Shown here one piece after another: positions 32,556 to 40,749 of a stretch of DNA of 64,000 bases. The notes below the pieces were generated by a model. It saw nothing but the letters and a program-made list of their open reading frames with translations, had not been told where the DNA came from and did no database searches. This DNA is from a candidate division WOR-3 bacterium (GTDB lineage Bacteria > Hydrothermota > Hydrothermia > LBFQ01): the NCBI GenBank assembly GCA_015492295.1, contig WGFI01000094.1, forward strand, positions 8,560-72,559, read 5' to 3'. Position 1 is the first letter of the stretch. Each line of letters opens with the position of its first letter. The translations under genes and the position numbers were made by a program.

Positions 32556-33320
32556 ATGGGAACCGTTAAATTGGATATAAAAGGTGAAGTCGCCAATATA
32601 ATACTGAATCGTCCTGAGGTTGGTAATGCTTTCAATAGGGATATGCTTATGGAATTGAAAGATATATGTGAAGACATTTCCAAATCTGAGAATCTCAGGG
32701 TTGTTATAATTTCAGGGGAGGGAAAACATTTTTGCGCCGGTGGGGATCTCAACTGGATGAGAGATATGGGGAAATCCGAATATTCTATAAACTATGATGA
32801 TGCGCAGCTTCTATACGATACATACCTATCCCTTGAAAATCTCCCTGTCCCTTTGATATCCAAGGTGAAAGGTGCGGTTAGAGGAGGTGGTATGGGTATA
32901 GTTAGCGTAAGCGACATAGTCATATCTTCAAATAAAGCCACCTTTTCGTTCTCAGAGGTAAAACTGGGACTTGTTCCTTCAATAGTCTCATCGTTTGCAT
33001 TACTTAGGCTATCCTATTCCATGGCCAAGAGGTTATTCCTAACCGGTGAGGTGTTTGACGCGGAGTTCGCGAGGAGCATAAACTTTGTGGATGAAGTCGT
33101 TGATGAGGGGGATCTGGATAAAAAAGTTCAAGAGTTCGTTGAGATTATACTCTCCAACAAACCCGAGGCTGTGAGGAAAACAAAAAATCTTATGAAGATA
33201 TATAGGGGTTTTCAGGGAAGCGTTTATAAAGATATAACCTCGCATATTTTGGCAACCACACGGATGAGCAAGGAAGCCTTAGATGGTATAGAGGAATTTC
33301 TACAAAGGAAAAGAAAGTGA
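32556..33320 (+). CDS. Enoyl-CoA hydratase/isomerase (crotonase family)
   Basis: 254 aa. The sequence is VANIILNRPEVGNAFNRDM...FCAGGDLNWM...GGGMGIV, giving the oxyanion-hole motifs. Confidence 0.85.
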   Translation: MGTVKLDIKGEVANIILNRPEVGNAFNRDMLMELKDICEDISKSENLRVVIISGEGKHFCAGGDLNWMRDMGKSEYSINYDDAQLLYDTYLSLENLPVPLISKVKGAVRGGGMGIVSVSDIVISSNKATFSFSEVKLGLVPSIVSSFALLRLSYSMAKRLFLTGEVFDAEFARSINFVDEVVDEGDLDKKVQEFVEIILSNKPEAVRKTKNLMKIYRGFQGSVYKDITSHILATTRMSKEALDGIEEFLQRKRK

Positions 33321-33347
33321 TTCTCAACCTTATAATACCCTACTCCT

Positions 33348-34478
33348 ATGTTGCCCATATCTTTCATAGGCATTGATACCGTGCTCCTTGATAAAGCCGA
33401 TAATAATGTCGTAATAAGATGGATATACAGTGGTGAGATAAAGCCGGATTCTATATATATTTTCAAATCAACGAAAGAACATCCGCCTGAGACTCCGATG
33501 ATCATAGGCAGGGTTTCCTATCCTGAGACCCTTTTCGTGGATACATCACGAGTTCAAGGAGAATATCTGCTTAGAATATTCTACGGAGAGGATAAGTTTG
33601 ATACGGGTTGGCTAACTTTATCATCTCCTGATCCAAAAAAGGAGCAAACGGAGGATGAGAAAAAGAAGGGAATTATAAAGTTTGATAGTGGCAAACTTAA
33701 TATACTCATCGCCATTATTTTGTTTGCATCGTTATTCTCGGCCCTTCTCTTTATAGCGAGGGTTAATCCCAACATTTATATAAGAAGGATAGGTGGGCTT
33801 GATGCTATTGATGATGCCGTAGGTAGAACGGCCGAACTTGGAAAACCTATAATATACACCACGGGGATAGGGAGTATAGATTCCCTTCCTATACTCGCTG
33901 GACTTACGGTTTTAAAGCATGTAACTAAGAAATCCGCACTTTACGAAGTTCCCGTTGTTATGCCCAATAACGATCCCTTGGTTCTTGCCGCCGCTCGTGA
34001 AGTTGTAAGGGAAGCATATATTGAAAGTGGAAGGCCGGATCTGTACAATGAGAATGATATATTTTTCTTAACCACGGAGCAGTTCGGATTCGCTTCTGGT
34101 ATAAGCGGTATGATGCAGAGGATGAAACCGGGAGCGGTATTTATGATGGGATACTTCTACGCTGAATCCTTGATATTGGCGGAGAATGCTAATGTAAGTG
34201 GAGCCATTTCAACCGCTGGTACCACGGCCATTGATCAGCTTCCTTTTTTCGTCGCAGCTTGTGATTATACCATAATAGGAGATGAGCTTTACGCCGCTTC
34301 TGCTTATATATCTCGTAATCCGCTTGAAGTCGCCAGCATAAAAACGGGGGATTGGTTTAAGGCTTTAAGTGTGGCCTTTATTCTCATAGGCTCATTACTG
34401 GCTACGATGATACTATTCAACGAGAATTTGAAGTTCCTACTTGATAGTTTGATGGTTATGTTTAAAACAGGAGGATAA
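33348..34478 (+). CDS. Hypothetical membrane protein (N-terminal soluble domain, TM helix, conserved-looking C-terminal domain, C-terminal TM)
   Basis: 376 aa. It has a beta-rich N-terminal domain of about 100 aa, a Lys/Glu linker, a TM helix (ILIAIILFASLFSALLFIA), a roughly 200-aa domain (GGLDAIDDAVGRTAELGKPIIYTTGIGS...GISGMMQRMKPGAVFMMGYFY...) and a final TM. No family is recognised. Confidence 0.45.
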   Translation: MLPISFIGIDTVLLDKADNNVVIRWIYSGEIKPDSIYIFKSTKEHPPETPMIIGRVSYPETLFVDTSRVQGEYLLRIFYGEDKFDTGWLTLSSPDPKKEQTEDEKKKGIIKFDSGKLNILIAIILFASLFSALLFIARVNPNIYIRRIGGLDAIDDAVGRTAELGKPIIYTTGIGSIDSLPILAGLTVLKHVTKKSALYEVPVVMPNNDPLVLAAAREVVREAYIESGRPDLYNENDIFFLTTEQFGFASGISGMMQRMKPGAVFMMGYFYAESLILAENANVSGAISTAGTTAIDQLPFFVAACDYTIIGDELYAASAYISRNPLEVASIKTGDWFKALSVAFILIGSLLATMILFNENLKFLLDSLMVMFKTGG

Positions 34479-34480
34479 AA

Positions 34481-35266
34481 ATGCAAAGGCAGGGTCCCAT
34501 AGCCGTTGTCGTTCTTTCCGCTTTATTTTCAACCGTTACTTTCTTTTTAAAAGGTGCCGATGAGATACAGACATACGGGATACTCATAGCGATAGTGATC
34601 TCGGGATTCGCTTTGATTCTGGGTGTTGATAGTTTGATCCTTTATCACACGAGAAACATTCAAAGAGGTAAAAATTCTCTTTTCAGCGGGATTCTTCTTA
34701 TAAGCTTCTGGACAACCGTTATATGGGGTATATTCGCCTGGTATAGATACGGTTCTCCGTTCGCTCAGAACTCATCCTTCATGTGGTTATTCATAAATGT
34801 CTATCTTCCTCTTGACGCCACCATGTTTTCAATTCTCGCCTTCTACATAGCTTCGGCCGCATATAGAGCCTTCCGAGCGAGAAATACGAATGCACTGGTT
34901 CTTTTATTGACCGCCTCAATAATTATGATAGGAAGGGTATTGTACTCAAACATCGTATTCCCCTTAGGATTAAGTATATTTTTATTCATTTCAGGTTTTT
35001 GGATATTCAAAAATGTGGGTAGGCTTTACGGTGCGGAGTTGATTTTCAGAAGATTTCTGGGTGCATTCCTTATGGCTGGGGCGCTTGTCGTTTTGGTACC
35101 TTCAATATTTAGTTTTATAGGCAGTAAAGCGTCTTTTCTAACAGATTGGATATTAAGCATACCTCAGAATGCTGCTAAGAGGGGGATGATTCTTGGTTTG
35201 AGCTTTGGTCAGGTGGCGTTCGCTTTAAGGATAATGTTCGGTATAGAAAGGTCGTGGATAAGGTAA
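34481..35266 (+). CDS. Hypothetical polytopic membrane protein
   Basis: 261 aa with 7-8 predicted TM helices. The ATG is 3 nt after the upstream stop, with an SD (GGAGGA). No family is recognised. Confidence 0.45.
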   Translation: MQRQGPIAVVVLSALFSTVTFFLKGADEIQTYGILIAIVISGFALILGVDSLILYHTRNIQRGKNSLFSGILLISFWTTVIWGIFAWYRYGSPFAQNSSFMWLFINVYLPLDATMFSILAFYIASAAYRAFRARNTNALVLLLTASIIMIGRVLYSNIVFPLGLSIFLFISGFWIFKNVGRLYGAELIFRRFLGAFLMAGALVVLVPSIFSFIGSKASFLTDWILSIPQNAAKRGMILGLSFGQVAFALRIMFGIERSWIR

Positions 35267-35282
35267 TTAAGAACCCTTTCGG

Positions 35283-35293
35283 CCTTAGAATAC
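35283..35293 (+). promoter_or_regulatory. CCTTAGAATAC promoter-like element (duplicated again at 35909..35919)
   Basis: It lies 4 nt upstream of the ATG of each tandem coiled-coil gene and is part of the duplicated unit. Confidence 0.45.
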
Positions 35294-35297
35294 GGAT

Positions 35298-35897
35298 ATG
35301 AGGCAAAGCACAGCTGAATTGTTCTTAAAGCTAAGGGAAAAGCTTGGAGAGGACACTGCGAAGGTCTTGACTGACTACCTTGAAGATGTTAAGGAGGATT
35401 TAACGAGTAAGTTTCTAACCAAGGATGAGGCCATACAGTTGTTTGAGACTTTAAAGGCCGAAATAAGAGCTAATAGGAGAGAGTATATCCAGATGTTTAA
35501 AGCATTGAAAGCGGAGATAAAAGCGCTTGACGAGAAGATGGATGCAAAATACTCGGCGCTTGAAGAAAAGATAAATGCGGTTGAGAAGGAGGTAAAAGCC
35601 CTTGAAGAGAAGATGGACGCCAAGTATTCCTATCTTGAAGGCTTGATACACTCCTTGGAGGAAAAGATGGACGCTAAATACTCAGCACTTGAAGATAGGA
35701 TAAAATCTGTCGAGACGGAAATTAAGGCACTTGACGAGAAGATGAACGAGAGGTATCAAAGGCTTGAGGAGAAGTTTGACCACAAGATAGACAGGACGAA
35801 CCTGTTGTTGATCTTCTTAATAATCCTAACAATCCTCGGCACAACTCTGTTCAACCCTAACTTTATAAACATAATGAAGATGCTTTTGGGACGATAG
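35298..35897 (+). CDS. Tail-anchored coiled-coil repeat protein, copy 1
   Basis: 199 aa. A helical N-terminus is followed by four or more roughly 25-aa repeats (KALDEKMDAKYSALEEKINAVEKEV / KALEEKMDAKYSYLEGLI...) and a single C-terminal TM (LLLIFLIILTILGTTLF). CCTTAGAATAC lies 5 nt upstream of the ATG. Confidence 0.6.
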   Translation: MRQSTAELFLKLREKLGEDTAKVLTDYLEDVKEDLTSKFLTKDEAIQLFETLKAEIRANRREYIQMFKALKAEIKALDEKMDAKYSALEEKINAVEKEVKALEEKMDAKYSYLEGLIHSLEEKMDAKYSALEDRIKSVETEIKALDEKMNERYQRLEEKFDHKIDRTNLLLIFLIILTILGTTLFNPNFINIMKMLLGR

Positions 35898-35923
35898 AAC
35901 CCTTTCAGCCTTAGAATACGGAT

Positions 35924-36448
35924 ATGAGACAAAGCACAGCTGAACTTTTCTTGAAGCTAAGGGAAAAGCTTGGAGAAGACACTGCGAAGGTTCTAACCGA
36001 TTACCTTGAAGATGTTAAGGAGGATCTAACGAGTAAGTTTCTAACGAAGGATGAGGCTATACAGCTGTTTGAGACCTTGAAGGCAGAGATCAGGGCTAAT
36101 AGGAGAGAGTATATCCAGATGTTTAAAGCATTGAAAACGGAGATAAATGCTCTTGAGGAGAAAGTGGATGCCAAATACTCAGTGCTTGAAGAAAAGATAA
36201 ATGCGGTTGAGAAAGAGGTAAGAGCCCTTGAAGAGAAGATGGATGCTAAGTATTCCTATCTTGAGGGATTAATAAATGCTTTAAGGAACGAGATGAATGA
36301 GAGGTATCAGAGACTTGAGGAGAAGTTTGACCACAAGATAGATAGGACGAACTTATTGCTGATCTTCCTGATAATCCTAACAATCCTCGGCACAACTTTG
36401 TTCAATCCTAACTTTATAAACATAATGAAGATGCTTTTGGGTATGTAG
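35924..36448 (+). CDS. Tail-anchored coiled-coil repeat protein, copy 2 (tandem paralog, one repeat unit shorter)
   Basis: 174 aa. It is near-identical to copy 1 over the N-terminal 70 aa and the C-terminal TM. The duplicated DNA unit includes the upstream CCTTAGAATAC element. Confidence 0.6.
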   Translation: MRQSTAELFLKLREKLGEDTAKVLTDYLEDVKEDLTSKFLTKDEAIQLFETLKAEIRANRREYIQMFKALKTEINALEEKVDAKYSVLEEKINAVEKEVRALEEKMDAKYSYLEGLINALRNEMNERYQRLEEKFDHKIDRTNLLLIFLIILTILGTTLFNPNFINIMKMLLGM

Positions 36449-36454
36449 GGCCTT

Positions 36455-37585
36455 TTATTCCAACACTTTTAAAATCTTCTCATATCTTTTTAATGCTTCG
36501 GATGGTTCTAATATGCCTTTCAATACGGGTTCCATAACCTCGGTGGCAAAATATCTTCTACCTCTCATCCAAATTTCCGTATTGGGTTCATAGGTGGCCC
36601 TATCTATCTGTTTAAATACGGGTTTCAATTCCTCCGATGAAAGGTTTATATCGGTTATGGGTGAATATCCTGTCCTCTCCGACCAGAACTTTTGAATACT
36701 ATCCTGTAAGAAAAATGCGATGAATCTCACAACTTCCCTGTACTCATTCTCGCTATGTCCCGTAAATATAGTTAAATTCGTTCCAGAGATAACTACGGAA
36801 TCGTATCTATCCACCGGTATGGGAGAGACGCCGAGTTTGAAAGATATTTTCGGTTTCATAAATACATAGGACACCGATGTGGCCCATATCATTAGGACCT
36901 TTCCGGAGGCAAAATCGTCCTGATGGCTGTACCCTGATCCCAGGTACGCGCAAGAATCCTCCAATATCAGTCTCCTTAAAAACTCCAAAGTTTCCAATCC
37001 TTCCTTACTGTTAAATTTCAAATCCTTCCCCCCCTTCTGTTTGAATATGGTGTAATATATCCAAGGGTCAATTGTAAAAGCAAATCCCCATATACCTTTC
37101 TCCTTCGCTTTTTTACATACATATTCCAACTCATCCCATGTCTTAGGGACATTCAATGAGTATCTTTCCATCAGATCCGCATTGTAAAATATCACGGGAA
37201 CGCTTTTGTTAAAGGGAATTGATACAACCTTCCCATCTATTTTAACTTCTTGTAATAGTCTCGGGTGAATTTTCCTAAGGAGACTTTCGGGCACGACCTT
37301 GTACGCCGGCATTACGAGATTCTTCTTAAAGAATTGTCGTGTCCAAGAGGGGAAAGTTTGGGCTATTAAAGGCAATCTTTTTGATACGGCGAAAGATATC
37401 AACCTCTGTGATAGAGTATTATAGCTTCCAAGATTCACTTCCTTTAAACCGCTCCTTGAAACTATCTCGGATAAAGCATCTCCCAATGGTCCCCCCATAG
37501 CATGCCAAAATTGGTAAGATGTTGAGGGCTGTTTGCACTGGGAGATGAATAAAATCATTAAACATGGATTTATCAATCGTTTCAT
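36455..37585 (-). CDS. ABC transporter substrate-binding protein (family 1, carbohydrate-type)
   Basis: The listed ORF extends to 37669, but the likely start is MKRLINPCLMILFISQC (signal/lipoprotein-like) at about 37585. The mature N-terminus (YQFWHAMGGPLGDALSEIV) and overall composition match sugar SBPs. No cognate permease or ATPase is adjacent. Confidence 0.55.
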   Translation of the reverse strand: MKRLINPCLMILFISQCKQPSTSYQFWHAMGGPLGDALSEIVSRSGLKEVNLGSYNTLSQRLISFAVSKRLPLIAQTFPSWTRQFFKKNLVMPAYKVVPESLLRKIHPRLLQEVKIDGKVVSIPFNKSVPVIFYNADLMERYSLNVPKTWDELEYVCKKAKEKGIWGFAFTIDPWIYYTIFKQKGGKDLKFNSKEGLETLEFLRRLILEDSCAYLGSGYSHQDDFASGKVLMIWATSVSYVFMKPKISFKLGVSPIPVDRYDSVVISGTNLTIFTGHSENEYREVVRFIAFFLQDSIQKFWSERTGYSPITDINLSSEELKPVFKQIDRATYEPNTEIWMRGRRYFATEVMEPVLKGILEPSEALKRYEKILKVLE

Positions 37586-37714
37586 CCCGAGATTATACCG
37601 ATGAACATAAACCTCATAAAAGCGCACAGTGAGGAAGCGGTCCGAGTTTGGGAAACAGGATATATTCATAAGGTTATATCTTTACTATAATATCACCATT
37701 ATAATTTTCACCTT

Positions 37715-38443
37715 ATGGTTGGGCTGCACCTAGTTATAGCATTTGATATTTTTAAGACGAAATGGGTGGGTATGGGTGTTCAGAGTTTCATTCCGACGGG
37801 TTCAGCCTGTATAACCCAAATATTGACCTCTGGGCCTGACAGCTTGGGATATGTTTATCTCATAGGTGTGGCGAGCAATAGCGAGACCCAAGCGTTTTTC
37901 CGAACGAGATGGAAAGGGACATTCGTTCAATCATTCTCACCAACATCGGGTTGTTTGAGGGGATTCTTAGCCGAAAGCGATACCCTCGGATACATATACC
38001 TCAAAGCATTCACGGATAGCGATACGGGTTATATATTGAAATCAGCGTATGTAGGAACCTATGTTCAGAGTTTTGATGCTTCACCCTGTTATATAAGGGG
38101 TTTTTCAGCGAAAAGCGATACGGGTGGATTTGCAGTTTTATCGGCCGATACTATATGCGGAATAGTGTCCTACTCCGAGGACTTCACACCTATAAATTCA
38201 CTTAAAATACTGTCAATAAATAACGATAGAAGGGGTGTCCTGATAAAATACACCGTTCCGAGATATGGGAGGGTAGTCCTCTCAATTTATACACCATCGG
38301 GAAGAAAAATCTATCAAAGAGTTTCTACGAGACATGTCGGAATATATCGGGAGAGGGTAGAGCTGCCGTCGGGAGTATATATTATATCGCTTAAAGAGGG
38401 TAAGGACAAGGTTATACAAAAGTTTGTAAGGCTTGGAAAATAA
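37715..38443 (+). CDS. Secreted repeat protein with T9SS-type C-terminal domain
   Basis: 242 aa. It has three roughly 45-aa repeats centred on G(T/M)(F/Y)VQSF. The C-terminus (LSIYTPSGRKIYQRVSTRHVGIYRERVELPSGVYIISLKEGKDKVIQKFVRLGK) matches the Por secretion tail. Confidence 0.5.
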   Translation: MVGLHLVIAFDIFKTKWVGMGVQSFIPTGSACITQILTSGPDSLGYVYLIGVASNSETQAFFRTRWKGTFVQSFSPTSGCLRGFLAESDTLGYIYLKAFTDSDTGYILKSAYVGTYVQSFDASPCYIRGFSAKSDTGGFAVLSADTICGIVSYSEDFTPINSLKILSINNDRRGVLIKYTVPRYGRVVLSIYTPSGRKIYQRVSTRHVGIYRERVELPSGVYIISLKEGKDKVIQKFVRLGK

Positions 38444-38457
38444 AAGGAGGTGGAACC

Positions 38458-39156
38458 ATGAAAAGGGTAATTTTAACATCTTTAAGCATAGGTTTGGTTC
38501 TTTATGCAACTGAGGCCTCAGGAGCGTGGATAGAGGGAGGAAATCCCATACCATCCGCCTTCACGAACATGATAGTGTATGACACGCCCGGAACATACAT
38601 CTGGACGGTTCCCGACGGTGTTTATAAGATAAAGGTGGAACTCTGGGGAGGCGGAGGAGCGGGGAATTATTATTCGTCATCGTACTACAGTGTTTATTGC
38701 GGAGGAGGAGCGGGAGGATACGGTTTGGCGATAATAGATGTAACCCCTTCAACGCCATGCGCCATAACGGTCGGTAGGGGAGGAACATCCGCAGGAGCGA
38801 ACGGTGAAAATACTACCATAACTTGTGGTTCCATAACATACACCGCTTATGGAGGTAAGGGAGCTTATTTAACCAGTTCTTCCTGCCATGGTGGTGAAGG
38901 GGGAGGAGCTACGACACCTTTCAGCATAAAGGGTATGTCTGGAGGTGTGTTTTATTATAACAGTAGTAGCCAAAAGTATATCGGTGCTACCATAGGCGGA
39001 TTCGCACCGAGAGGTGGAGCAGGGGCTTTTTATTACAATCCTTCTCTTTATGTTATTAGCGACTCCTCCTACGCGAGATTCCCAGGGGGAGGAGGTTTTT
39101 ATGGAGCACCTTTACACATCAAAGGCGCCAATGGAGCCGTGATAATCTGGTACTGA
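38458..39156 (+). CDS. Secreted glycine-rich domain protein (Gly_rich-like: WTVPDGVxxIKVELWGGGGAG)
   Basis: 232 aa with signal peptide MKRVILTSLSIGLVLYATEASGA. The motif TYIWTVPDGVYKIKVELWGGGGAGN...CGGGAGGYG, followed by poly-Gly/Ser/Thr, matches the Gly_rich family pattern. It has a strong SD (AAGGAGGTG). Confidence 0.5.
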   Translation: MKRVILTSLSIGLVLYATEASGAWIEGGNPIPSAFTNMIVYDTPGTYIWTVPDGVYKIKVELWGGGGAGNYYSSSYYSVYCGGGAGGYGLAIIDVTPSTPCAITVGRGGTSAGANGENTTITCGSITYTAYGGKGAYLTSSSCHGGEGGGATTPFSIKGMSGGVFYYNSSSQKYIGATIGGFAPRGGAGAFYYNPSLYVISDSSYARFPGGGGFYGAPLHIKGANGAVIIWY

Positions 39157-39222: not shown

Positions 39223-40749
39223 ATGATCTGGATGATACTTTCGCAGTATTGGACGCATTATGGGGGAAATCCCCGCCATACGGGTGTTCAAGGTCTCGCA
39301 GGTGGAATGACGAGTATATATGTTAGATGGAAAAGCTATCTATGGACGAGATCATTTCTCGGAATACATGGCTCTCCTGTGATATGCAATGTAACCAATA
39401 CCTCACCGGGGGGCGAAGTTATCGTTCGTGTCGTTAATAATTCCTACTCCAACCTCGTGAAGGTGTATGATGGGAGGTTTGGAACCGTTATATGGACGAA
39501 GTACCTGGGAAGCGGTACGGAGTATGCCACACCTGCCTGTGGAGATCTGAACCTTGATGGCTTAGATGATATAGTGGTTAGAACGAGTAATTCAATAGTG
39601 GCGCTCAGAGGGTACGATGGTAATACTTTGTGGAGCGTATCCGTGGCCAATATGAATTCTTCCCCGGTGGTTGAAGATGTTGTGCCTTCATCATCCGGCC
39701 CAGAGGTGATATATCTGGATCTGAATGCCTTCAATCGTCCCGTACTTTATGTTAGATCAAGAACGGGAAGCGTAATATGGTCAAGGACACTTAGTAATTC
39801 GGAAACTCTCATAGGATACGATGGACAACCCGTGTATTCCACTCCCGCCGTCGGTGATCTTGATGGTGATGGAAACTTGGAAATAGTGATAAAAACGCGT
39901 TCCAACGGTTTGAGGGCATACGATGGGAGGAACGGTTCCCTCAAATGGGTTTATAGTCTGAGTTCAACTTCAAACGCCCAAACTCCAACGCTTATAGATC
40001 TAAACAGAGATGGAAGAAAGGATGTGATATTCTCCGAGGGTCTGTACGCCACCTATCATGATAGGTACCTGAAAGCCGTAAATCACAATGGATCCTTTAT
40101 GTGGCAACTGGATCTCGGAGGTTATATGGCGGGTATAGGATTTGAATACTTCGCAAGCGTTGATATTGATGGGAATAGGTATCCCGAAATATTTCTCGGT
40201 AGGGATCAATATGTACTTCGTGTAAATCAAAATGGTTCATCCGCTTTCGTTCAATGGGCCTTTGGACCCGAGGGGAACTCCTGCTGGGATGCGAGTGTGG
40301 TGATTATAGACATAAACAACGACGGGAACTGGGAAATAGTGAAGACTTGCGACGGTGATCTGGCTCCGCCGGGAAAGATAAGAATTTTCAGGGCATCAAA
40401 TGGAAGCATAATATGGAGTGGAGAGCATGGGTGTTATACAGATCCAAGTGTCGCCGCCGGTGATGTTGATGGGGATGGATGCTCAGAGATAGTATATATA
40501 AAATGTACGAGTACGCTTGATAGCGTATATGTTCTTGACGGTCCGGTATCGCCATGCAGGATACTTTCAGAGGATAGGGAGCTTGACATCGTAGAATCGC
40601 GAAAGACATTGGAGTACAAAAATGCCCTATTGTATTCCGTGGATGGAAGATACATAGGAAGATACGATGAAAAATCGTCCGAATCTTTAAAGCCGGGGGT
40701 GTATTTCATAACGGATGGAAGGAGATACAAAACCTTAATAATAAGATGA
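39223..40749 (+). CDS. FG-GAP/VCBS-repeat beta-propeller protein with T9SS-type C-terminal domain
   Basis: 508 aa. At least six Ca-binding-like blade motifs are present: DLNLDGLDDIVV, DLDGDGNLEIVI, DLNRDGRKDVIF, DIDGNRYPEIFL, DINNDGNWEIVK and DVDGDGCSEIVY. The C-terminus is LYSVDGRYIGRY...PGVYFITDGRRYKTLIIR. The N-terminus lacks a clear signal peptide, so the start is uncertain. Confidence 0.6.
   Translation: MIWMILSQYWTHYGGNPRHTGVQGLAGGMTSIYVRWKSYLWTRSFLGIHGSPVICNVTNTSPGGEVIVRVVNNSYSNLVKVYDGRFGTVIWTKYLGSGTEYATPACGDLNLDGLDDIVVRTSNSIVALRGYDGNTLWSVSVANMNSSPVVEDVVPSSSGPEVIYLDLNAFNRPVLYVRSRTGSVIWSRTLSNSETLIGYDGQPVYSTPAVGDLDGDGNLEIVIKTRSNGLRAYDGRNGSLKWVYSLSSTSNAQTPTLIDLNRDGRKDVIFSEGLYATYHDRYLKAVNHNGSFMWQLDLGGYMAGIGFEYFASVDIDGNRYPEIFLGRDQYVLRVNQNGSSAFVQWAFGPEGNSCWDASVVIIDINNDGNWEIVKTCDGDLAPPGKIRIFRASNGSIIWSGEHGCYTDPSVAAGDVDGDGCSEIVYIKCTSTLDSVYVLDGPVSPCRILSEDRELDIVESRKTLEYKNALLYSVDGRYIGRYDEKSSESLKPGVYFITDGRRYKTLIIR

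Follow-up and report, generated by a model that had tools for sequence, protein, structure and literature searches.

Among described systems, the closest to the genes analyzed here belong to the DUF1640/CCDC90-like class (PF07798), which includes mitochondrial MCUR1 and CCDC90B, yeast Put6 and Put7, and, among prokaryotic homologs, Korarchaeum Kcr_0859 (PDB 6H9L; Adlakha et al. 2019, as cited in PMC7519068). Put6 and Put7, which are homologs of MCUR1, face the matrix (PMC7519068). The Bdr proteins of Borrelia are multicopy, vary in repeat number, and are associated with the inner membrane (PMC10016077, PMC3303823), and the annotation of an 18-kDa protein of B. miyamotoi gives it a DUF1640 domain (PMC6856195). 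Where their stalk begins, DUF1640 proteins carry a beta-layer motif, with the consensus [aliphatic]-A-T-K-[polar]-[DE] (Hartmann et al. 2016, PMC4786415). Proteins with beta-layers are homotrimers in nearly all cases, and the trimeric coiled coils of this kind include Thermosinus Tcar0761, the DUF3782 family, and the stalks of trimeric autotransporter adhesins (PMC4786415). Here we describe two adjacent genes, copy A and copy B, of a candidate division WOR-3 bacterium; the window, by which we mean the whole stretch of DNA that was analyzed, comprises 64,000 nt (contig WGFI01000094.1, positions 8,560 to 72,559; assembly GCA_015492295.1). Our reading, to which we assign a probability of about 0.6, is that the two genes are long-standing, constrained paralogs of a small WOR-3 family that forms a divergent branch of this head-neck-stalk-anchor class, and that they encode a tail-anchored stalk whose length is varied by recombination.

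The window proteins resemble DUF1640/CCDC90-like proteins in that they are small, have no signal peptide, and consist of an N-terminal head, a candidate T-K neck where the long stalk begins, and one C-terminal transmembrane (TM) segment. They differ from them in the neck, which reads F-[LMP]-T-[KR]-[DE]-E where the consensus has [aliphatic]-A-T-K-[polar]-[DE]; in the anchor, whose NPNF motif and terminal amphipathic helix are found in only part of the class; in the stalk, which is built of 25- and 18-residue modules that vary in number and order between paralogs; and in distribution, the window family being confined to a few WOR-3 genomes. With Borrelia Bdr proteins, as these are described, they share a paralog family whose genes each carry a promoter of their own, imperfect internal direct repeats that vary in number between strains and paralogs, and a hydrophobic C-terminal end. 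However, Bdr genes are carried by linear plasmids and by cp32 prophage-plasmids, whereas the WOR-3 genes lie in chromosomal-looking contexts and none was found in the viral contigs scanned; their neighbors are housekeeping or envelope genes, and a plasmid or prophage location like that of Bdr genes was not encountered. We presume that the 18-kDa B. miyamotoi protein may itself be a Bdr protein. The putative likeness to beta-layer coiled coils lies in a T-K-[DE]-[DE]-type motif that is predicted to break the helix at the coiled-coil boundary and in a stalk periodicity that is not heptad, but the window proteins have one motif each instead of an array, and the second position of that motif is bulky.

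Tandem copies, their divergence and protein architecture

In the DNA alignment, the repeat unit has a period of 626 nt, starting at about position 35270 and again at 35896 (Table 1). The two open reading frames (ORFs) differ at 62 of 522 aligned coding positions, and this identity of 88% in coding DNA agrees with the initial annotation, which had described adjacent genes of 199 and 174 aa about 90% identical over a 626-nt unit. We found 11 amino acid differences and, in the DNA, a single 75-nt (25-codon) indel; the copies thus differ, as had been claimed, by exactly one 25-aa repeat, and the extra block of copy A is LEEKMDAKYSALEDRIKSVETEIKA. Alignment and hydropathy also place both the upstream element and the C-terminal TM anchor inside the unit, where the initial annotation had put them: the unit spans about 27 nt upstream of the ATG plus the C-terminal hydrophobic segment at aa 167 to 185. 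The junction between the copies is clean, running from stop codon to upstream element to ATG. Antisense ORFs of 57 to 82 aa across the repeats were dismissed as mechanical by-products of repetitive coding sequence.

The duplication had been called recent, a view that the divergence of the copies does not support. Between copies A and B, synonymous divergence (dS) is 0.65 and nonsynonymous divergence (dN) is 0.04, for a dN/dS of about 0.06. Codons 1 to 70 contain 20 nucleotide changes and no amino acid change, and the head is free of amino acid change despite a dS of 0.69. Thus, both copies have been kept for a long time under purifying selection. Each copy also has closer relatives in another genome, and the paralogs therefore appear to be older than the separation of these WOR-3 genomes. 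The head of copy B has 96% DNA identity to a singleton gene (L003) of GCA_027016755.1, compared to 90% to copy A, while the head of copy A is nearest to one gene of a related array (L002a, 93%) and its tail is nearest to another (L002b, 98%). The family genes are mosaics, and recombination within and between repeats is real, which sustains the earlier suggestion of recombination within internal repeats; repeat number and repeat order both vary among relatives.

Comparison with relatives, which the initial annotation had proposed, showed that copy number and repeat number both vary, with 1 to 4 copies and lengths of 116 to 224 aa. The window has two genes in tandem, GCA_027016755.1 has three in tandem plus the singleton (4 in total), and single genes are found elsewhere. 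A homologous three-gene array is present in two assembly records (L001 from ENA and L002 from NCBI), with 27 mismatches over an overlap of 1830 nt, and it shows the same stop codon, upstream element, and ATG junction as the window.

An AlphaFold2 (AF2) monomer model of copy A, with a mean predicted local distance difference test score (pLDDT) of 81, has helices at residues 5 to 16, 18 to 37, 42 to 163, 166 to 184, and 187 to 196. Together with hydropathy, this model supports the architecture that had been proposed, namely a helical head, periodic repeats, and a single C-terminal TM segment. The helix is interrupted at residues 38 to 41 (KFLT), within a neck, F39-[L/M/P]-T41-[K/R]-[D/E]-E44, that is kept in all family members. 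S37, F39, T41, and E44 do not vary, K or R occupies position 42, and the second position is not small, unlike that of the beta-layer consensus, which the F-x-T-[KR]-[DE]-E neck would fit only partly. In the stalk, where pLDDT is 89 to 95, hydrophobicity recurs with a period of 3.58 residues, equal to 25/7; hydrophobic residues, spaced 4-4-3-4-3-4-3, line up in a narrow stripe, the remaining positions are rich in E and K, and Tandem Repeats Finder (TRF) gives periods of 129 nt and 21 nt. By this pattern, the stalk is predicted to be a coiled coil with regular stutters (11+7+7 residues). The C-terminal segment is the sole hydrophobic one, and the N terminus is hydrophilic.

Close relatives are few, with only 8 proteins found among the 5.8 billion protein clusters searched. 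Scans of genomes and of metagenomes added one locus each, a locus in a WOR-3 metagenome-assembled genome (MAG; locus L004) and one partial locus. Family members were traced to WOR-3 or to unlabelled metagenome contigs, and their lengths are 116, 145, 161, 174, 174, 188, 188, 199, 199, and 224 aa. Common to all members are the head, MRQSTAELFLKLREKLGEDTAKVLTDYLEDVKEDLTSKF-LTKDE, and the anchor, in which the TM helix is followed by NPNF and then by a short amphipathic helix; a NERYQRLEEKFDHKIDR stretch precedes the anchor in all members except the L004/P0008 subgroup. Between head and tail lie modules of 11 (LEEKMDAKYSA), 7, 14, and 18 residues that vary in number and order. Copy B and the L003 gene, for example, have the same total length but a different order (25+18 and 18+25, respectively), and there are about five 18-residue units in L004 versus one in P0008. 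Three further proteins from WOR-3 MAGs (P0020, P0278, and P0279) have the same TM-NPNF anchor but 22-residue repeats; all three are annotated as partial at contig ends, which suggests that such repeat genes or arrays often break short-read assemblies.

Table 1. Features of the tandem gene pair and related upstream boxes in the window (positions are those of the window)
Feature	Position	Strand	Remarks
Upstream element, copy A	35270..35297	+	-10-like TAGAAT at 35286-35291, 6 nt before ATG; probable leaderless-mRNA promoter
Copy A (winA, = P0001)	35298..35897	+	199-aa ORF, 100% identical to P0001; tail-anchored coiled-coil protein (predicted)
Head, aa 1-37, two short helices	35298..35408	+	residues 1-70 identical in amino acid sequence in copies A and B
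Neck motif F39-L-T-K-D-E44	35412..35429	+	candidate beta-layer at head/stalk junction
Stalk, aa 42-163, one long helix of 11-, 7-, 18-, and 25-residue modules	35421..35786	+	periodicity, TRF, AF2
75-nt (25-aa) module in copy A, missing from copy B	35661..35735 (about)	+	DNA and protein alignments; exact placement within repeats ambiguous
TM segment, aa 167-185	35796..35852	+	maximal 19-residue Kyte-Doolittle mean, 2.29; AF2 helix 166-184
NPNF motif and short amphipathic helix, aa 186-199	35853..35894	+	N186, P187, N188, and F189 invariant; anchor module with TM segment
Upstream element, copy B	35896..35923	+	TAGAAT at 35912-35917, 6 nt before ATG
Copy B (winB, = P0003)	35924..36448	+	174-aa ORF; head and anchor as in copy A, stalk one 25-aa module shorter
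CYTTAKAAT boxes before long ORFs	14755, 26145, 33328, 35283, 35909, 39206, 40780, 48975, 52829	+	
CYTTAKAAT box before long ORF	17431	-	

Proposed relation to the DUF1640/CCDC90-like class and alternative explanations

The initial annotation did not recognise the family. Profile comparisons now suggest that it is related, though divergently, to the class of DUF1640/CCDC90-like proteins (MCUR1, Bdr). Several of the profile matches are collinear from head to anchor, among them P0065, P0124, P0125, and P0129. Intermediates of this kind match PF07798 collinearly at 18 to 27 bits (P0125, 27.3; P0129, 27.2; P0116, 23.5), and two of them, P0129 and P0116, match the solved DUF1640-type protein 6H9L (E = 5e-4 and 0.03, respectively). 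In Foldseek, 6h9l_A was the only PDB match. By BLASTP, copy B aligns with P0129 collinearly from head to TM segment, with 29% identity over 163 aa. The WOR-3 head resembles the heads of P0116 and P0129, in alignments that are collinear from the head through the neck and have the T-K motif at the same junction. Using hhalign, we found that the WOR-3 profile (A3) matches A4, a family that includes P0161, whose UniRef name is DUF1640 domain-containing protein, with 97.4% probability (E = 1e-11) over the 35-aa anchor. It also matches A5, the P0129 group, with 92.9% probability (E = 3.7e-7) over 93 columns of head and stalk starting from residue 4; PF07798 is on record for 9 of the 12 members of A5 and for 10 of 22 P0129 relatives. 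We take these profile-profile matches as moderate evidence, in which coiled-coil bias is possible. A TM-NPxF anchor is present in about 20 of 146 representative clusters, and many profile matches carry a [LVF][AVL]TK.[DE] neck, a loose pattern found in 21 of 146 mostly coiled-coil matches. Our best reading of these comparisons is that the WOR-3 family would be a new, small, lineage-specific branch of the known DUF1640/MCUR1/Bdr-like class, lying below the Pfam threshold.

We also observed that relatives of P0125 from Hydrogenimonas, Thiomicrospira, and Methylococcales (P0159 to P0277), which are labelled DUF1640 and have an ELATKEF neck and an LTLFNPxF anchor, range in length from 114 to 144 aa, largely through gain or loss of 7-residue EISEVRA units. 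This suggests that variation in stalk repeat number is general in the class. Searches of both copies against Pfam, NCBIfam, PHROGs, and PADLOC returned sub-threshold coiled-coil noise (among others, FliD_C, Apolipoprotein, SMC, ZorA, LmuB, and tape-measure proteins), from which we adopted no assignment; FliD_C, at 26.6 bits, is nominally above its cutoff of 25.4 but was rejected, as the match covers only a coiled-coil stretch at aa 111 to 161. Sequence searches of the PDB, run once from the isolated head and once from the family profile, gave nothing meaningful, returning designed coiled coils and TM_1646 at E = 0.6. The names that sources give to distant relatives (MotE, RaiA, glutamine synthetase, and TolC, among others) are inconsistent and were set aside as uninformative.

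Several results weigh against placing the family in this class. PF07798 (gathering cutoff, 33.5 bits) was absent from the matches listed for either copy, for head or tail taken separately, and for the 116-aa member P0008; of the 266 matches from a profile search of 1.84 billion representatives, most cover the stalk only; structure searches were nonspecific; and a direct comparison with the 6H9L fragment was weak. These results would fit an independent, lineage-specific family of tail-anchored coiled-coil proteins that converged on the DUF1640/Bdr architecture, with a similarity in head and anchor that is compositional; the protein would then still be a membrane-anchored stalk, but not a member of the class. 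We regard such convergence as unlikely, given that the hhalign matches cover the anchor in one case and head plus stalk in the other, both to groups that are labelled DUF1640 or match it, and that the P0129 and P0116 alignments keep head, neck, and T-K motif in register. The missing Pfam threshold carries little weight, because the 6H9L fragment, which comes from a published member, itself scores just 19.7 bits on PF07798. Repeats built on 11-residue units could instead belong to a lipid- or membrane-surface-binding amphipathic protein of the apolipoprotein, LEA, or perilipin type, with its 11-mers lying on a membrane or lipid body, and there are sub-threshold matches to Apolipoprotein (PF01442) at 21.4 bits for copy A and up to 47 bits for related proteins. 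All of these scores, however, are far under the 90-bit cutoff, the hydrophobic stripe is narrow and has the period of 3.58 given above, not the 3.67 of 11/3 lipid-binding helices, with other positions rich in E and K, and the proteins have a dedicated TM anchor and a conserved head, so that we consider a lipid-binding repeat protein improbable.

The genomic setting bears on two other explanations. Family genes occur in at least five different genomic contexts. Synteny is lost precisely at the edge of the cassette, with homology between L003 and L007 starting exactly at the upstream element (L003 5975 = L007 967). Such breaks might be expected of a phage or mobile-element cassette (XhlA/holin-associated, scaffold, or tail-fibre fragment) spreading between sites, and PHROGs gave weak matches, none above 28 bits, to tape-measure proteins, scaffold proteins, and families without an assigned function. 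We judge a mobile cassette highly improbable: no relative was found in the 2.9 million viral contigs scanned, the loci examined have no adjoining integrase, transposase, or phage genes, the PHROG and PADLOC matches cover coiled-coil stretches only, and homologous recombination between dispersed paralogs explains the changes of context equally well. It could also be asked whether the arrangement is an assembly artefact, either an expanded or misjoined repeat or two strain alleles placed in tandem, since the source is a metagenome-assembled contig and contig ends often leave related WOR-3 proteins partial, an indication that such repeats disturb assembly. But 62 of 522 aligned positions and a 75-nt indel set the copies apart, the junction between them is clean, and tandem arrays sharing that junction are found in two separate assembly records. 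The divergence of about 12% between the copies and the homologous array in two records make an artefact very unlikely indeed.

Upstream elements and genomic neighborhood

The upstream element, AGAACCCTTTCrGCCTTAGAATACGGAT, has 1 difference in about 27 nt between the copies, although dS is 0.65. TTTCA.C.TTAGAAT.CGrAT-ATG is conserved before each of the nine full-length family genes, even that of L004, with its identity of 45%. In the window as a whole, CYTTAKAAT lies 6 to 11 nt before the start of an ORF of at least 100 aa at 11 of 16 sites, compared to 5.5% of random positions, and the boxes before long ORFs leave no room for a Shine-Dalgarno sequence. We read the CCTTAGAATAC element as the generic -10 box of leaderless genes in this genome, not specific to this family. 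The initial annotation's view that the unit includes its promoter therefore holds insofar as each copy carries a promoter-like element, but not as to specificity, CCTTAGAATAC being genome-wide. From a -10 box 6 nt from the ATG without a Shine-Dalgarno sequence, we infer a leaderless mRNA, and each copy probably has its own promoter and makes such an mRNA. A scan for sigma-70 and terminator consensus sequences found nothing above shuffled expectation; a consensus scan of this kind misses promoters that have only a -10 box, because there is no conserved -35 box. Overall, transcription without a leader seems to be common across this WOR-3 genome.

The neighbors of family genes differ by locus. 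As no gene is kept throughout as an operon partner, the context offers no hint of function, and neither phage nor defence genes gave a signal. Upstream of the pair in the window are a DUF6754 gene and a gene for a 261-aa membrane protein (33348-35266); the DUF6754 protein has 376 aa (Pfam E = 3e-96) and is followed 2 nt later by the 261-aa multi-TM protein, which has no family match. A functional link between these two genes and the pair was rejected, as neither has a homolog in any related locus. An Rfam scan of positions 33000 to 38000 gave only a sub-threshold sR33 match in the DUF6754 gene (26.5 bits, with a gathering threshold of 37), which we treated as chance.

At L001/L002, L003, and L006, the neighbors are beta-propeller genes of a type IX secretion system (T9SS) type, namely FG-GAP/PQQ propellers with a T9SS-like C-terminal tail (L003 4427-5959, L001 1752-3300, L006 1-960, and L002 3281-4753), and an alcohol dehydrogenase lies downstream at L003 and L007. 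The propeller paralog of the window (about 39223-40740) is only 28% identical and lies about 3 kb from the gene pair. L004 has as neighbors Uma2-like genes and an outer-membrane-receptor-like gene, names that come from inspection of the translated ORFs and not from a domain search. The T9SS-type beta-propeller gene that immediately follows the three-gene array has a (CAAA)n tetranucleotide repeat in its first codons (L001 1765-1800; L002 from 6742). There are 9 copies in L001, where the frame is broken and a stop follows after 17 codons, and 7 in L002, where the frame is kept; the L003 paralog (from 4427) has 2 to 3 copies. This pattern resembles phase variation, by strand slippage, of a secreted protein. 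In the window, we also noted two plus-strand ORFs downstream of the pair, both judged by eye: one (37715-38443) ends in a sequence like a T9SS C-terminal sorting domain (…GVYIISLKEGKDKVIQKFVRLGK), and the other (38458-39156) is glycine rich with a signal-peptide-like start.

Proposed mechanism and meaning for the family

The protein is predicted to be tail-anchored, inserting into the membrane by its one C-terminal TM helix and exposing its N-terminal part to the cytoplasm. This orientation is supported by the matrix-facing Put6 and Put7 (PMC7519068) and by the association of Bdr proteins with the inner membrane (PMC10016077, PMC3303823). The long coiled coil with its stutters would bring about oligomerisation, probably into a trimer, and the short, predicted non-helical neck (F-L-T-K-D-E) would part the stalk from the two-helix head. 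The head, the most conserved part, is presumably the binding end and, at an alpha-helical rise of about 0.15 nm per residue, would stand off the membrane by about 18 nm in copy A and about 14.5 nm in copy B; the protein may serve as a scaffold or tether for a partner at the cytoplasmic membrane face. Homologous or unequal recombination among modules and paralogs would change stalk length and module order, giving rise to the mosaics and to the range of 116 to 224 aa.

The practical value of these findings is modest and consists of annotation for otherwise hypothetical WOR-3 genes. They also show that Pfam's model misses much of the DUF1640-type class, and they provide evidence for a wide use of leaderless transcripts in this WOR-3 genome. 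Proteins of the DUF1640 type span archaea, human mitochondria (MCUR1/CCDC90B), and Borrelia (Bdr), and their molecular role is still debated. We offer, as a speculation of which we are ourselves doubtful, that the WOR-3 genes and the roughly 20 clusters with a TM-NPxF anchor form an unrecognised, widespread clade of length-programmable membrane stalks, in which paralogs that share an identical head but differ in stalk length coexist within a cell as distance rulers or tethers, keeping one partner at discrete spacings (here about 14 and 18 nm) from the cytoplasmic membrane, and promoter-carrying cassettes recombine; if true, cassette recombination would reset stalk length and rearrange the genome at cassette boundaries. 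The family is a natural experiment on stalk length, in which the head is very tightly constrained while the stalk is free to change by units of 7, 11, 18, and 25 residues. This combination suggests that the partner of the head matters and that the distance from the membrane is tunable.

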